Assembly (NCBI RefSeq): GCF_902652985.1
Contig: NC_047022.1
Coordinates: 30,659,465-30,723,464, forward strand
DNA: 64,000 nt
Direction of reading: 5' to 3'
From: Pecten maximus
Taxonomy: Eukaryota
Shown: piece by piece, positions 2,459 through 7,676 of the stretch
Position numbering within the stretch: the first letter of the stretch is position 1
How the letters are laid out: each line of letters begins with the position of its first letter
Made by a program: the position numbers and the translations under genes
Notes under the pieces: model-generated
What the model was told of the DNA's origin: nothing
Database searches by the model: none
What the model saw: only the letters and a program-made list of their open reading frames with translations

Positions 2459-3667
2459 TAACAAGAGGCGAATAGGGCCTGAATCACTCACCTGGATACA
2501 TGTAATTCAGTAATTATTGCAAAATAATTTAATTCAAGTTATACCAGGTATTTTAAATATTTTCCTACTTTTGAACTGCCTCTCCCAACAATGGTTCAAA
2601 CCACAGGTGCACAAAATCCTGTTATTCTTGAAAAAGAAACATTTTTATTATTTTCTTTGCCATATTTCCCCTATAAGGCCCCCTTTGTCCCACCGTAAGA
2701 GGGCCATATCCTTCGTTTATACAACAACAGATCTCATTTGGATAATTATTCTCCAAACCATATTTCATCAACATCCATTCAAGTATTCAGGACTAGTAGG
2801 GATTTAAAGGATTTACCTCAATTTCCCCTAATGGGCCCAGCCCTTCCGGCCCCAGGGGAGCCACACCCTCTGTTTATACAATGCTTAATCTCCTTTGCCC
2901 AATAACAACCCAGCCCAAATTTCATCAAAATCCATTCAAGTTCAAGTTTTTTATTAACTTTCAGGTGTTCAGGACTAGTAGCAGTTTAAAGGATTTACCT
3001 CAGTTTCCCCTCTTGGGCCCCGCCCCTCCAGCCCAGGTAAGCCAAATTCTCAGTTTAATCAAAATGTGAACTACAAGGTTGTAGTCACTTGTAGAATTGT
3101 TGTGTATGGTGTAAGAGAGGAAGACGGAGTCCAAGTCGTTGTATCTTGGTTTATTTACGTGTGTAGAACTGCTCAGTCCAGTCCTTGGAAACCGACTACA
3201 TAATATAGTAACATCTAACCTTTTATAGTCCTAAGTCCTAGGTATGAGTATACATGTATATGATTGATTGATTGATACATGATAATATGGAAGACGGCTG
3301 TCATATAGCCTAAGACAATATTAGATAACCATGTACAACATGTACCATTAATATCAGATCAACTACGTCAACAGGTAAACAGAATTGGTGCCAAAGGGCA
3401 AATGTGTTATATAAAAATACAGATCTAGGAATAAAATCTGATATATATTTTTAACTAAATTTTAAAATAATTTATTATATTTCATTCGTCCCTTTGTCAA
3501 AAATGATTTCAAATTAGATATAATTTCGACATCATATAAGTACGTTTGATCTCCTTTGCCCAATAATGCTCCAGCCCAAATTTCATCAAAATCTGTTCAG
3601 GACTAGTAGGGATTTAAAGAAATGTTGACGGACAACAGATGCTGTGCCATAGCATAATGGCAAAAAG
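2459..3667 (+). mobile_element. HINE/pearl-like non-autonomous element, subfamily A (head-array-tail)
   Basis: The head is aacaagaggcgaatagggcctgaatcactcacctgg. Internal units resemble ..gatttacctcaatttcccctaatgggcccagccc.. (2700-3060, 3540-3600). The tail gatttaaagaaatgttgacggacaacag..tgccatagcataatggcaaaaag has the same array-tail junction as the element ending at 25077. Bases 3060-3540 look like an internal insertion. Confidence 0.5.
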
Positions 3668-6600
3668 TTGACGCTGGAAGGACAGACGCCGTTCCACTGG
3701 CAGGGGAGCTAATAGTCAATTCGAAAACAGCCTTACCTGTAATTGATGGTGCAGTCCAAACTTTTAAAGATGTTGTCATATCCACAGTGTCTCCAGTCTT
3801 CTCATTTCCATCATATACTGATGTTTCTTGTAAGTCCTTCGCTTCATCAGTTTTCTTTTTTGTCATTTTTTCCTTGTCTGATTTGACTTTCTCATTAGTA
3901 GTTGCCCATTTCTTCCTTTCTTCATTATGCTTAATCCATTTTTTACTTTTACTTCCATGTTCTTCGTTTACTTTTTTCTTTCTTTCATCCTTGTCTTTAC
4001 TGCTGTCCATAGTATCCTTATTTTTTCTACTAGTTCTGACATGTTCACTGTATCTAGGCTTACTTTTATGGCATGTCCAATCTTTTGTCCCTCTTCTGTC
4101 TATTTCGATCTTTTCCTCTTGTTCTTCATTTCTATCATTTCTAAATCTGTCTTTACTATCATGACTTCTTCCCCTGTACCTTCTCTGCATATCTTGACTT
4201 GGACTTCTGCTGAAACTCCTCTGTCTATCCCGTCTCGTACTTCTTCTAAAACTCCTCTGTCTATCCCGTCTCATACTTCTGCTGAAACTCCTTCGTCTAC
4301 TTCGACTCATACTTCTGCTGAAACTCCTTCGTCTACTTCGACTCCTACTTCTTCTGAAATTCATCGGTCTATCCCGACTCAAACTTCCGCTGAAACTCCT
4401 CTGTCTATCCCGACTCCTACTTCTGCTAAAACTCCTTCGTCTACTTTGACTCAAACTTCTGCTGATACTCCTTCGTCTTCGTCGACTTCTACTTCTGCTG
4501 GAACTCCTTCGTCTTTGTCGACTTCTACTTCTGCTGGAACTCCTTCGTCTTTGTCGACTTCTACTTCTGCTGGAACTTCTTCGTCTTTGTTGACTTCTAT
4601 TTCTGCTGGAACTTCTTCGTGTTCTTTGCTTCAACCTTTGATTGGATTGTTTGTGGCTACCAATGTCAATATGCATACATATTGCTGATTCTGTGTCAAG
4701 ATTATCTAATTTTCTGTATGAAAACAAATCACCTGTAAAACCACAATGGGAAATACGGTCACCCATGCGACCCCCACCAAGACTACCTCTCCCACCCACA
4801 TCGGAACCACCTCTCCCATCCACACCGAGACCACCTCTCCCACCCACACCGGGACCGCCTCTCCCACCCACACCGGGGCCGCCTCTCCCACCCACACCGG
4901 GGCCGCCGCTCCCACCCACACCGGGACCGCCTCTCCCACCCACACCGGAGCCACCTCTCCCAACCACACCGGGGCCACCTCTCCCACCCACACCGGGGCC
5001 ACCTCTCCCACCCACACCGGGACCACCTCTTCCACCCCAGCCACGACCACACCTCTCTCCGACCCACACCGGGGCCACCTCTCCCACCCACACCGGGGCC
5101 ACCTCTCCCACCCACACCGGGGCCACCTCTCCCACCCACATCGGAACCACCTCTCCCACCCACACCGGGACCATCTCTCCCACCCACACCGGGACCACCT
5201 CTTCCACCCCAGCCATGACCACCTCTCCCACCCACACCAGGACCATCCCTAAAACCACCGCCGTAACCGCCCCTATCACCTCTAAAACCTCTACCTTGAC
5301 CATCTCTGCCAACACTACCTTCCCTAAAACTTTGACGAATGGAACTTCTTGAACCACAATTATACTCGTAATTTCCACTACCTCTACTGCCAAAACTTTC
5401 ATTTTGAGAAATAACTACACCACCAAAACCACCTCCAAAATACTGGGTAGTTTCTTCTGATTCAGTTGGCACTGTCTGGAGAGTATTCAAAGCTGCTGGT
5501 TTTGCAACAAATCCATATTCTTGCAATTTGGTAAGTGCACTGCTTGGTGTTGAAACACCTTGATAAGTTGAAGCTGCTTGCTTTGAAACTCCAGAGTTTA
5601 AACCTAGTGATGGTAAAGTGTTTAGTTCTGTTTGCATTGGAGCACCAAAGCAACTTGGAATACTACTCGGAGCTGCTAATGTTGTCAACCCAAAGCCAAA
5701 CCCCTGTGCTGGCACATCGCGTAGTGCAGCATGCAATGGACCTCCAAATGCAGATGTTTGATTTACAGTTAACCCAGAGCCCAAATCTTGTGTTGGTACA
5801 TTGTTTGTTGCTCTTTGAAGTGAAGTGTAAAATGAGAATGATGGACTTGGTAAACTGCTAGAAGTCGCTAGTTCTGAAGCGCCAAACAAGCCTAACCCTT
5901 GTCTTGGTACATCACTATGGGCTGTTTGAAGTGAAGCACCAAATGAAAATCCTTGATTCTGTAAACTGCTAGAAACGGCAGGTTTTGAAGCCGCAAAAGA
6001 GCCAAAACCATTTGTTGGGACATTGTTTGGGGTTGTTTGAAGAGAAGATTGTTGCCTTATCAAACTACTAGAAGCTGCTGTTTTTGAAGCCCCAAAAGAG
6101 CCAAAACCACCATGTGTTGGTACATCATTTTGTGTTGTTTGAAGTGAAGCACCAAATGAAGTCCCAAAATCAAACCCCTGTGTTGGTACATCTTTCAGTT
6201 TTGTTTGCGGTGATGCACCAAATTTTTGACAGACAGCAGCTCCAGATTTTGTTCTCCTCTTCCCTTGTTGGTAAGGAGGAGAGGTAGGCGTATAAAATGG
6301 ACTTGCTGGCTGATAAACAGCAGCAGTAGGTTTGTACATTGGGCTGCTTGGTGAATAGGATGGGCTGGTTGGTGAATAGGATGGGCTGGTTGGTGAATAT
6401 GATGGGCTGGTTGGTGAATATTTTGGAGATGTTGTTGTATATTCTAGTGACATTGGTGATAAGGCTGGGGTGGCTGGTGAATAATGGGGGTCCAGTGATG
6501 ATAAAAAATTGTCGGATAATTTAGAAGTTAGATCATAATCTAAATCAATTTCAATGTCTTCATCCACTATTTGGGAGGCTGTCCTTTTTCTGCTTGCATC

Positions 6601-7676
6601 TGTAGTTTTCCATACATTTTTATTACAATCCCCCGTGTTCAAAAGTTCAGTGGTTGAGTCTACCATCAATTGTTCCTCCTGCTCCTCTGCCTCCTCCTGC
6701 TCCTCCTCCTCAACCTGCTCCTGCTCCTCATCCTCCTCCGCCGCCTCCTCCTCCTGCTCCTCCTCCTCCTCCTCCTCTGCCTCCTCCTCCTCCTCCTCAT
6801 CCGCCTCATATATAATTCTTTTAGCACCACCTTTACCTAGCCCTTTCCCAGATTTCCTTGGTGCTCCCATTTTTGTGGATGACCTAATATCAGCAACAAC
6901 AGCAGATTTCCTTTCAAATTCTTCTTCAAATTCATCACAGGAACTGTCCTCCTCACTTTCATCAGTTTCAATGTGCTCTTTAGCAGGTACAGAAGAACGT
7001 CTGGCAGCTTTGGTTGCAATCTGTTTTCTTGGAATAAATGAAGATTCCCTTTCTGATGTTTCTTCAAATTCATCACAGGAACTGTCCTCCTCACTTTCAT
7101 CAGTTTCACTGTGCTCTTCAGCAGGTACAGAAGAACGTGGATTTCTGGTTAAAACATGTTCTCTTGAAACAGACAAATGCCTTTGTAGCTGACCAAGTTG
7201 TTTTTGTTGCTGTTGTTCCCATTGCAGAGGTTGCTGTTGTTGTTGCTGTTGTTGCTGCTGCTCCTGTTGAAGTTGTAATCGCTGAAGTTGTTGTTGCTGT
7301 TTTTCCCATTGCAGCGGTTGCTGTTGCTGTTGTTGTTGTTGCTGTTGCTCCTGTTGAAGTTGTAGTCGATGAAGTTGTTGTTGTTGATGTTGTTCCCATT
7401 GCAGCAGTTGTTGTTGCTGCTGCTGTTGTTGTTTTTGTTGTTGCTGCTGTTGTTGTTTTGTTGTTGCTGCTGTTGTTGTTGTTGAAGTTGTTGTTGATTA
7501 AGTTGTTGTTGTTCCCATTGCAGCGGTTGCTGTTGCTGTTGCTGCTGCTGTGGAAATTGCTCTTGTTCATATTGATGCAGTTTTGGCTTTAGAATTTGTC
7601 CTGGCTTAGCAATGCCCTGAAAAATATAGATTTTGATAACTTCTGGAGAAGACACATTTGATATGTTCTTTGACAT
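3603..7676 (-). CDS. Large low-complexity mosaic protein (polyQ, histone-tail-like peptides plus acidic tracts, CTD heptads, FG repeats, GGRGGPGV repeats, RS domain, KE-rich tail). Two frame slips inside repeats make it ~1300 aa if repaired.
   Basis: Three overlapping track ORFs on the minus strand (7676-7149, 7176-4783, 5402-3603) form one continuous open region. Repeat periods are multiples of 3 (24-nt octapeptide, 21-nt heptad), which supports protein coding. Frame 0 stays open upstream of 7176 (..[27 protein letters not shown]..). The slips lie at ~7480 (CAG/CAA run) and ~5035 (+4 nt in one octapeptide unit). The stop at 3603 lies in a HINE tail. Confidence 0.55.
4750..5400 (-). repeat. 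Coding 24-nt tandem array encoding about 27 copies of GGRGGPGV (RGG-type), with a frame slip near 5035
   Basis: The plus-strand unit is ctcccacccacaccggggccgcct. One variant unit at 5021-5070 carries +4 nt relative to its paralog at 5196-5240, and this shifts the frame between the 797-aa and 599-aa track ORFs. Confidence 0.6.
6271..6441 (-). other. RNA polymerase II CTD-type heptads (YSPTSPS x3 plus [28 protein letters not shown] variants)
   Basis: Residues ~246-302 of the 797-aa ORF. The 21-nt repeat is visible at 6340-6420 on the plus strand as ggtgaatag(g/t)atgggctg(g/c)ttg. Confidence 0.6.
6817..6882 (-). other. H3(9-17)-like STKMGAPRK fused to an H4(6-17)-identical [12 protein letters not shown] peptide, then RIIYEA and poly-E
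   Basis: Residues 99-123 of the 797-aa [14 protein letters not shown] matches the histone H4 N-terminal tail at 11 of 11 positions. Confidence 0.6.
6982..7032 (-). other. Histone H3 tail-like peptide [17 protein letters not shown] (cf. H3 16-31 [16 protein letters not shown]; K27 position is R)
   Basis: Translation of the 797-aa ORF, residues 49-65. A shorter copy ([10 protein letters not shown]) lies ~35 aa upstream, in a 120-bp tandem duplication that also encodes [12 protein letters not shown]. Confidence 0.6.

Follow-up and report, generated by a model that had tools for sequence, protein, structure and literature searches.

A giant PARP4 exon of Pecten maximus as a putative lineage-variable array of host-protein mimics

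To our knowledge, the function of PARP4 and of the vault has been unclear since their discovery, and the sole earlier evolutionary clue was positive selection on one disordered vertebrate exon. Here we analyse a 64,000-nt stretch of the Pecten maximus genome (contig NC_047022.1, positions 30,659,465 to 30,723,464; hereafter the window), in which a 3,880-nt region of the minus strand is almost certainly the largest exon of a PARP4 (vault PARP) orthologue, placed directly after a ubiquitin-like domain (UBL). On balance we favour the view that this exon is a lineage-variable array of host-protein mimics, possibly serving as bait or decoy. The closest described element is the largest exon of vertebrate PARP4 (human exon 30), which is disordered, hypervariable and under recurrent positive selection, and for which recognition of pathogen factors, possibly with recruitment to vaults, has been proposed (Daugherty et al. 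2014, PMC4038475). The two are alike in that each is the largest exon of a gene of the same family, lies C-terminal to the vWA domain, is predicted to be nearly all disordered and varies in length and sequence between lineages. However, the vertebrate exon encodes ~360 aa in which no recognisable copies of host proteins have been reported, whereas the window exon would encode ~1,290 aa of mimics following a UBL. In one of the comparison loci described below (L008) the array precedes the conserved C-terminal helical segment, and its position may not strictly equal that of exon 30.

Plant NLR-ID proteins are integrated-decoy immune sensors. The disordered regions of NLRP1 and CARD8 are cleaved by viral proteases and work as tripwire sensors (PMC7857732, PMC10249858), and NLRP1B has been described as an integrated decoy (PMC13037943). 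The array would resemble these sensors in being a disordered, perhaps rapidly evolving mimic of the targets of pathogen enzymes, covalently attached to an effector domain. It differs from them in that NLRP1/CARD8-type sensors hold one or few mimic sites and signal through FIIND-CARD or NLR modules, whereas the PARP4 array would place many mimics in series on an ADP-ribosyltransferase with VIT and vWA domains.

Two further comparisons concern single modules. Ubiquitin-fusion precursors (polyubiquitin, UBA52/RPS27A) are cleaved by deubiquitinases after RLRGG when polypeptide follows. Like them, the PARP4 UBL combines a ubiquitin fold with an exact RLRGG C-terminus and further polypeptide, but it is internal, only 37% identical to ubiquitin, and located between an enzyme and a disordered array. 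Histone-tail mimics of 4-6 residues occur in non-histone proteins, as in the ARSK of influenza NS1 and the ARKT of G9a. The window likewise has short tail-like peptides outside histones, but these extend over 13-14 residues nearly identical to H4 5-17 and H3 16-29, and L008 holds H3 1-35 at 80% identity.

The PARP4 family itself, its hypervariable disordered exon, and integrated decoys in plants and in NLRP1B are thus already known. A survey of the PARP family gives only BRCT-PARP-VIT-vWA for the PARP4 clade (PMC2964712), and a search of an incomplete literature library for PARP4 together with decoy, mimicry, tripwire, ubiquitin-like domain or bivalve returned no description of such arrays. 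Provisionally, then, we regard the serial host-mimic array and the preceding UBL in PARP4 as undescribed; domain databases may already show some of the fusions.

The giant exon, its gene and its reading frames

Three long open reading frames (ORFs) of the minus strand, in two reading frames, lie in 3603-7676: 7676-7149, 7176-4783 (797 aa) and 5402-3603 (599 aa). An earlier note on this DNA, made from the sequence alone, had taken the region for a single continuous coding frame of about 4 kb, with no stops in any frame and a short unique C-terminus. None of these three points was borne out. The first base of the exon, 7616, follows a strong 3' splice site (ctatatttttcag, then GGC), and its last base, 3737, precedes a consensus 5' splice site (ACAG/gtaagg), so that the region is best read not as a gene in itself but as one exon of 3,880 nt, internal to a PARP4 orthologue. 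It opens in phase 0, in frame 2, which agrees with the phase-0 end of the upstream UBL exon, and the splice phases fit from the first UBL exon to the second and on to the giant exon. The supposed C-terminus (3736-3603) lies beyond the donor and is probably intron, running into a repeated element. Because the exon ends at a splice donor, the gene probably continues beyond the window; the C-terminal helical segment and the MVP-interaction domain of PARP4 were not found in 1-3736 and may lie outside it.

The repeated element (...AAATCCTTTAAATCCCTACTAGTCCTGAA...GATGAAATTTGGGCTGG...) is short and present in three copies, at ~3680-3560, ~2985-2870 and ~2800-2690; the first of these gives the 599-aa ORF its apparent C-terminus and stop codon.

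The gene around the exon has the domain order BRCT (putative), PARP, VIT, vWA, post-vWA segment, vestigial linker exon, UBL and giant exon:

16799-57851, minus strand: core PARP4 exons, intact (tblastn with PARP4 proteins, Pfam)
57851-57654, minus strand: putative BRCT (tblastn)
46530-33585, minus strand: PARP_reg/PARP (tblastn, Pfam)
31237-28571, minus strand: VIT (tblastn, Pfam)
26988-22070, minus strand: vWA (tblastn, Pfam)
20323-16799, minus strand: conserved post-vWA segment (tblastn)
14400-14591, minus strand: exon-like segment, at best a vestige, similar to the linker and the start of the 14-3-3-like module of loci L008 and L004 (tblastn of the L008 piece, 14588-14508, E=0.3; no Pfam match)
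12236-12418, minus strand: UBL, exon 1 (IEVKTLTGKT...QQRLIHD...; splice sites, Pfam)
8596-8690, minus strand: UBL, exon 2 (...LQNNPIFLVMRLRGG VPSTIQTLKSSTIPYK; splice sites, Pfam)
3737-7616, minus strand: giant exon of 3,880 nt, a conceptual disordered array of ~1,288 aa (acceptor, donor and phase)
3603-3736, minus strand: read-through past the donor (3737/3736) into the repeated element, which recurs at ~2985 and ~2800

PARP4 proteins are the best matches to the upstream exons, and tblastn maps BRCT through the post-vWA segment in order and with no frameshifts. On the joined exons Pfam gives 89.6 bits for PARP, 92.3 for VIT and 52.8 for VWA_3; the putative BRCT, a 66-aa piece without a Pfam match, aligns with the BRCT region of a fish PARP4 (tblastn E=9e-7 at 57851-57654). 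The catalytic H-Y-E is kept (LMHASS at 43956, GIYFSD at 43650, NEFVVY at 33719). The joined UBL exons reach 55.9 bits with the Pfam ubiquitin model (cut-off 25.4), and the domain, which ends ...FLVMRLRGG, is identical to ubiquitin at 27 of the 73 aligned positions.

Along the exon, the coding frame is 2 from 7616 to ~7460, 0 from ~7460 to 5062, and 2 again from 5060. The open stretches run over 7616-7152 (frame 2), 7497-4786 (frame 0) and 5414-3741 (frame 2), each segment being open in one frame only, and over the whole exon the three frames carry 52, 67 and 23 stops. The features at the changes of frame are the following:

7464-7616, minus strand: segment A, in frame 2, with a linker, polyQ and the first PLQWE (three-frame translation)
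7456-7459, minus strand: frameshift 1, from frame 2 to frame 0, in an A4 run whose paralogous copy (7436-7432) has A5
5061, minus strand: frameshift 2, from frame 0 to frame 2, an extra C (GGT C GGA) in the octapeptide array, located by alignment with a paralogous higher-order unit

The distance from QWE to QWE is 119 nt across frameshift 1, compared with 90 and 87 nt between the other copies, and identical peptide repeats are read on either side of each frameshift. A continuous protein of ~1,288 aa requires two corrections of 1 nt, namely addition of an A in the 7459-7456 run and removal of the C at 5061; in the assembled sequence, translation coming from the upstream exon halts at 7151-7149. 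A single intact ORF is ruled out by the three ORFs in two frames. Splicing was considered as a repair of the frame and rejected: there is no GT anywhere in 7616-7464, and the second shift is inside a perfect octapeptide array, with room only for a mini-intron of <20 nt.

The length of the open stretches is hardly a matter of chance. We estimated P ~1e-9 for the FG (phenylalanine-glycine) part and 2e-23 for the whole frame-0 run (904 codons), and P ~5e-11 to 1e-10 for the frame-2 run over the RS (arginine-serine) domain and the K/E-rich tail (558 codons). Together with the identical repeats on both sides of the shifts, the 904 and 558 open codons downstream indicate that the sequence is coding, or was so until very recently. 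In this respect the earlier claim of genuine protein-coding sequence, as opposed to chance openness, satellite or transposable element (TE), holds. It is indeed very improbable that the region is non-coding satellite or TE repeat DNA, or that it forms a gene of its own encoding a nuclear low-complexity protein. Tandem repeats make up a large part of it, TEs are abundant around it, and the polyQ and octapeptide arrays can be read without a stop in two or three frames. However, its non-repetitive parts are open in one frame only, it has consensus splice sites at both ends with matching phases and no initiator context, and colinear arrays are fused to PARP4 in other species, two of them within one ORF.

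The array is probably translated as one in the living animal, which would make both frameshifts artefacts of the assembly or of the allele sampled. The frameshifts could also be real: the PARP4 copy would then end after the UBL and polyQ/N at 7149, or its transcript would undergo nonsense-mediated decay, and the later modules would be a very recent relic of a broken allele or decaying exon. We judge this somewhat unlikely. The two changes of frame are independent and neither is compensated locally, and the 14-3-3 and actin modules of other loci are already lost or degraded in this lineage. Nevertheless, an error of assembly or haplotype collapse seems somewhat likelier than a disabled allele, since each indel changes one base within a repeat or homopolymer, a setting prone to assembly error, the conserved PARP4 exons are all intact, the 904 and 558 codons past the shifts contain not one stop, and the corresponding ORFs of L005, L007 and L008 run through without a break.

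Modules encoded by the exon

All modules of the exon are read on the minus strand. From N- to C-terminus they are as follows, with tandem periods from Tandem Repeats Finder (TRF) and helices from AlphaFold2 (AF2):

7190-7559, minus strand: polyQ region with four 29-aa repeats, three with PLQWE and one with LLQWE (TRF period 87, alignment, AF2 helix)
6982-7032, minus strand: H3 tail mimic, H3 residues 16-31 with K27 changed to R (colinear with the H3 copy of L008)
6817-6885, minus strand: chimeric H3(9-18)/H4(5-17) tail mimic (alignment against shuffles)
6670-6807, minus strand: polyE/acidic tract of 46 residues (translation, TRF)
6271-6483, minus strand: heptads like those of the carboxy-terminal domain (CTD) of RNA polymerase II, 10 in register, of which 3 are perfect YSPTSPS (TRF period 21; matches to RPB1)
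5461-6225, minus strand: FG region, ~7-8 irregular units of 22-48 aa on an xDVPTx anchor, with 15 FG dipeptides (translation)
5242-5442, minus strand: GAR/RGG-like (glycine-arginine-rich) stretch (translation)
4767-5241, minus strand: PGVGGRGG octapeptide array, ~19-20 copies (TRF period 24, 19.7 copies; frame 0 before 5061, frame 2 after)
4197-4625, minus strand: RS domain of 12-aa repeats (TRF period 36, 11.6 copies)
3741-4196, minus strand: K/E/D-rich tail, one predicted long helix (AF2)

Most of these modules had been listed in the earlier note. The histone-tail-like peptides in their acidic and polyE setting, the CTD heptads, the RS domain and the KE-rich tail were recovered as described, and the repeat periods (87, 21, 24 and 36 nt) are multiples of a codon, as had been stated. 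Other descriptions needed adjustment: of the four polyQ repeats said to hold PLQWE one has LLQWE, the FG units are more numerous and less regular than the six of ~50 aa proposed, and the octapeptide array is real but shorter than the ~27 copies announced.

The QWE-bearing repeats span 7526-7216, and two copies of a 12-residue acidic peptide (7095-7060 and 6957-6922) stand upstream of the polyE tract. The H3-like peptide (7032-6991) is identical to H3 16-29 at 11 of 14 positions, with a score of 58 against a maximum of 55 in 300 shuffles. In the second mimic, the part identical to H4 K5-R17 at 12 of 13 positions scores 63 against a maximum of 51 (300 shuffles), and it is preceded by STKMGAPRK, which resembles H3 9-18. 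The serine contexts of the H3 mimic are changed in the window, ARKS having become RRSS. No Pfam histone match was found in the window; what aligns is limited to these tail-like peptides of 13-14 residues.

The H4-like peptide runs straight into KRIIYEAD (6817-6800, minus strand), which we take to be comparable with the start of the 4E-BP eIF4E-binding motif RIIYDRK, possibly by chance. A motif after polyE resembling the C-terminal tail of the ribosomal P-stalk was judged too degenerate to claim in the window.

The CTD heptads match the CTDs of RPB1 down to E=8e-45 in a word-based protein search, and the Pfam CTD repeat model gives nothing at E<=0.1 in the window. Since the polymerase domains of RPB1 were not found in the exon or in the gene, the heptads would be a CTD mimic and not the mark of a family member. 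The FG region has its 15 dipeptides in ~255 aa with no match to Nucleoporin_FG (Pfam) and no Nup domain in the window, and the RS domain is present without the RRM of SR proteins, for which there is no Pfam match. Differences between the octapeptide units show an excess at third codon positions.

Single-sequence AF2 models, with a mean pLDDT (predicted local distance difference test) of 42 and 45, predict the giant exon to be almost wholly disordered. The exceptions are the polyQ helix (residues 2-104, pLDDT ~80-89), a K/E-rich helix (residues 357-412 of segment C, pLDDT up to 91) and a polyE helix of low confidence. Judged from their sequences, the modules copy or imitate the tails and repeats of conserved host proteins, spaced by polyQ, acidic and K/E tracts.

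Searches with the exon returned little else. A phmmer search with the histone-like, unique and FG parts of the exon, the CTD and polyE tracts being taken out of the query, gave 0 matches among 1.84 billion protein representatives, and the scan of metagenomes with the giant exon found no match. The word-based search with the frame-0 ORF retrieved only RPB1 CTDs, covering <=15% of the query, so that the earlier impression of an architecture without a described counterpart was upheld. None of the matches listed from the word-based collection, even RPB1, exceeds ~1,130 aa; very long proteins thus seem to be missing from it, and the absence of an orthologue there is weak evidence. With the post-vWA segment and the UBL as query, the matches were mostly polyubiquitins, plus short PARP4 fragments ending before the UBL. 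Window ORFs of 797, 599 and 428 aa had no exact counterpart in the records of public assemblies.

Arrays in other PARP4 loci and their possible function

Comparison loci were collected by a metagenome scan seeded with the conserved post-vWA segment and from contigs of PARP4-like proteins. About a dozen eukaryotic loci have a PARP4 core and, behind it on the same strand, fragments that can be recognised as parts of conserved host proteins. L008 is the most informative. After its PARP4 core come a 14-3-3 piece (36.5 bits), two ubiquitin domains, the second ending LRLRGG, an N-terminal actin fragment (48 bits) and a Snf7 piece below threshold. An 849-aa ORF then encodes acidic tracts and two H3-like copies, the first matching H3 1-35 at 80% identity; after these come EEEESDDDMGYGLID, heptads of the CTD type, FG repeats and a KE tail, and the ORF is followed by the conserved PARP4 C-terminal helical segment. 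EEEESDDDMGYGLID resembles the C-terminus of ribosomal P-proteins (the L008 motif being SDDDMGYGLID), and the start of the ORF (RSAVSSEETASSDSED...) aligns colinearly with the window exon.

The other loci combine different pieces. The order of the window recurs in L007, with polyQ (QQQPLEQ), ~35 CTD-like heptads (Pfam 29.1 bits) and an RS domain. L005 is a single ORF of 2,002 aa with BRCT, PARP_reg, PARP, VIT, vWA, actin residues 6-64 (45 bits) and SEDDMGFGLFD, and in L004 the post-vWA segment and the C-terminal half of 14-3-3 (84 bits) share one ORF. A synaptobrevin SNARE motif (48 bits) occurs with polyPro and WH2 in L013; polyPro, WH2 (29.7 bits) and an acidic-Trp motif in L006; and a P-stalk-like motif with FG repeats that reach the Nucleoporin_FG cut-off (33.4 bits) in L052. 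In L001, FG repeats, polyQ and a KE tail come after a UBL that ends in LRLRGG; BLASTP of the giant exon against this tail gave no significant alignment, the likeness being of composition and architecture only. In L002 and L003 (ENA contigs) the core is followed by an actin fragment only, with no UBL, so the array is not uniform.

Certain fragments recur with fixed limits. The actin pieces (residues ~6-72) begin and end alike in seven loci and contain a nearly invariant VGRPRHQGVMVGMGQKD there, the 14-3-3 pieces cover residues ~142-235, and motifs like SDDDMGFGLFD are present in L004, L005, L008, L014 and L052. The set of modules in the window is not that of L001, L004-L008, L013 or L052, and the giant exon has no alignable homologue; its H4-like, RGG and octapeptide modules were seen in no other locus. 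Conversely, profiles of the actin and 14-3-3 fragments gave no match in six frames of the window, tblastn with the Snf7-like pieces of L008 gave none either, and 14591-14400 would be at best a vestige of the 14-3-3-like module. To judge from these comparisons, arrays of mimics with lineage-specific content occupy the same position of PARP4 in other organisms.

The C-terminal part of P0137, a PARP4-like protein of Tegillarca granosa, contains ...EESDEEDEDLEFGLFGDGE, which is similar to the ribosomal P-protein motif SDDDMGFGLFD. In P0221 and P0225, VIT-vWA proteins without PARP, and in L013 (13240-14223) a synaptobrevin R-SNARE motif lies between vWA and the C-terminal helical domain, so that the VWA5A/PARP4 family as a whole seems to have a hot spot at this insertion site. 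P0111 and P0115 (Mytilus californianus / M. galloprovincialis) are MATH-domain proteins with ~35 C-terminal CTD heptads, annotated 'RPB1-like'; they are a further example in bivalves of a CTD mimic joined to an unrelated domain. P0221/P0225 and P0111/P0115 resemble the window exon in carrying a mimic of a host protein, but they have a single module each and no PARP domain, and are unrelated to it in sequence.

As the same position of PARP4 elsewhere carries pieces of actin, 14-3-3, synaptobrevin, WH2 and the P-stalk, the common theme would be the mimicry of host proteins, not low complexity as such, and these fragments of folded or cytoplasmic proteins do not point to the idea that the exon strings together the sequence classes driving nuclear condensates. 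The colinear but differently composed arrays of other species lead us to read the window exon as a lineage-variable host-mimic array tethered to an enzyme. The mimics would act as baits for factors that bind, modify or cleave conserved host hubs; the captured factors, most likely pathogen proteases, toxins or effectors, would be held beside the ADP-ribosyltransferase or the vault. Alternatively, pathogen factors might sever the link from the catalytic half to the C-terminal part and so report infection. Because the array lies between these two parts, cleavage anywhere in it would separate them, giving a tripwire read-out by analogy with NLRP1/CARD8.

Several considerations favour such a role. 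The folded-protein pieces are incomplete (~60 residues of actin, the last three helices of 14-3-3) and should be unable to do the job of their parents, yet they are conserved toward them. The parents also form a list of hubs targeted by pathogens. Ubiquitin RLRGG, the H3 tail, VAMP, actin, 14-3-3 and WASP-type VCA elements are all bound or cut by pathogen factors, as are the P-stalk tail, to which ribosome-inactivating proteins bind, the FG nucleoporins, the CTD of Pol II and SR/RGG proteins. Moreover, the positive selection previously found in PARP4 is confined to its disordered largest exon (PMC4038475). The imitation of host targets expected of a decoy is seen at the level of sequence, for H3, H4, CTD, FG, RGG, RS and ubiquitin in the window and for actin, 14-3-3, synaptobrevin, WH2 and P-stalk in the related loci. 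We therefore put forward the bait or decoy function tentatively, at rather less than an even chance. More doubtful still is the general proposition that animal PARP4 carries evolvable serial integrated decoys between its VIT-vWA half and its C-terminal part, which would trap pathogen factors or be severed as a report of infection.

An endogenous role is the first alternative. The sequence classes of the array are of the kind that bind transport receptors and drive condensates, and nearly the whole giant exon is predicted to be disordered. It might thus be an interaction hub or condensate scaffold, whose short linear motifs and low-complexity tracts bind cellular partners or phase-separate with no pathogen involved; this is closest to the idea of the earlier note. 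Candidate partners would be karyopherins (through signals of the nuclear-localisation type in the FG, RGG, RS and histone-tail modules), readers of the CTD and of histones, and ubiquitin receptors. WH2, polyPro, acidic-Trp, the SNARE motif and the P-stalk tail of the other loci are real binding motifs, and vaults, which enclose ribosomes, have been connected with nuclear pores (PMC2964712, PMC13100048). However, a hub leaves unexplained why incomplete pieces of folded proteins (actin ~6-72, 14-3-3 ~142-235) are kept at one position in many loci, and why module content turns over so strongly between lineages. We consider it unlikely.

The link between the array and a PARP domain with intact H-Y-E suggests a further alternative, a PARP1-like region for automodification and the handling of poly(ADP-ribose) (PAR), with acceptor sites in the Glu/Asp tracts, Lys-Ser motifs and ubiquitin C-terminus, and PAR-binding RGG, RS and basic tails. 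Acidic tracts and the KS motifs of histone tails accept ADP-ribose, and RGG/RS regions bind PAR. Such a region would nevertheless not account for the actin, 14-3-3, synaptobrevin, WH2, P-stalk, CTD and FG modules across the loci, and in the window the serine contexts of H3 are altered. We regard it as improbable.

Against a mimic array with bait or decoy function, several points must be weighed. As assembled, the frame is broken twice, and the stop at 7151-7149 precedes every histone, CTD, FG, RGG and RS module. Simple repeat expansion, with no mimicry involved, can produce polyQ, polyE, RGG and RS tracts. H3 K27 is replaced in both species, by R in the window and by Q in L008, so that some functional residues are not kept. 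The H4-like, RGG and octapeptide modules occur in none of the orthologues found, the giant exon is without a detectable sequence homologue, and the window lacks the actin and 14-3-3 modules as well as the C-terminal part of the gene. Metagenome contigs supply the comparison loci, and in most of these splicing is needed to join the modules to PARP4, L004 and L005 being the only single ORFs. Finally, a purely endogenous role would fit the sequence data equally well.

In either case the disordered part of PARP4 in other animals or eukaryotes would be a string of recognisable imitations rather than anonymous low complexity, with a conserved position and a lineage-specific composition. The modules point to candidate ligands: viral 3C-like or papain-like proteases, deubiquitinases, ribosome-inactivating toxins that bind the P-stalk, SNARE-cleaving toxins, bacterial toxins dependent on actin or 14-3-3, and viral proteins that bind the CTD or FG repeats. 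If the array is a decoy, the principle of the integrated decoy would extend from plant NLRs and mammalian NLRP1/CARD8 to an ADP-ribosyltransferase, the vault and PARP4 would acquire a role in immune sensing, and this would be the first multi-decoy sensor described in animals. If it is an endogenous hub, the modules would provide the first list of likely PARP4/vault partners in invertebrates.

Other features of the window

Two minisatellites are found in PARP4 introns, with units of 38 nt (84 copies) and 22 nt (157 copies), at 40227-43458 and 50191-53650, and explain why their 2-kb bins show a strongly positive GC skew (+0.23 to +0.35). A repeated element occurs at least six times in the introns of the gene, including 19739-18600 and 8348-7927. 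Its minus-strand translation resembles ...KMAA..GNHLE.HILNFFSSSTGAIE.EIGEDVKEGE..CCYFSAS, and it probably represents a family of short interspersed elements (SINE) or miniature inverted-repeat transposable elements (MITE). Other tandem repeats in the introns and the flank have units of 157 (314), 148 and 145 nt (9860-10467, 1535-1914 and 2128-2436). An Rfam scan of the whole window gave no match.

Outside the PARP4 exons, an intact plus-strand ORF of 435 aa (61220-62527) encodes a K/E-rich, probably coiled-coil protein without a Pfam match or an exact record in public assemblies. At the other end of the window, a remnant of a PIF/Harbinger-type transposase lies on the minus strand at 520-1501 (Pfam DDE_Tnp_4, a weak 17 bits); its frame is broken near 730, and a GDxAYP motif is read in the next frame.

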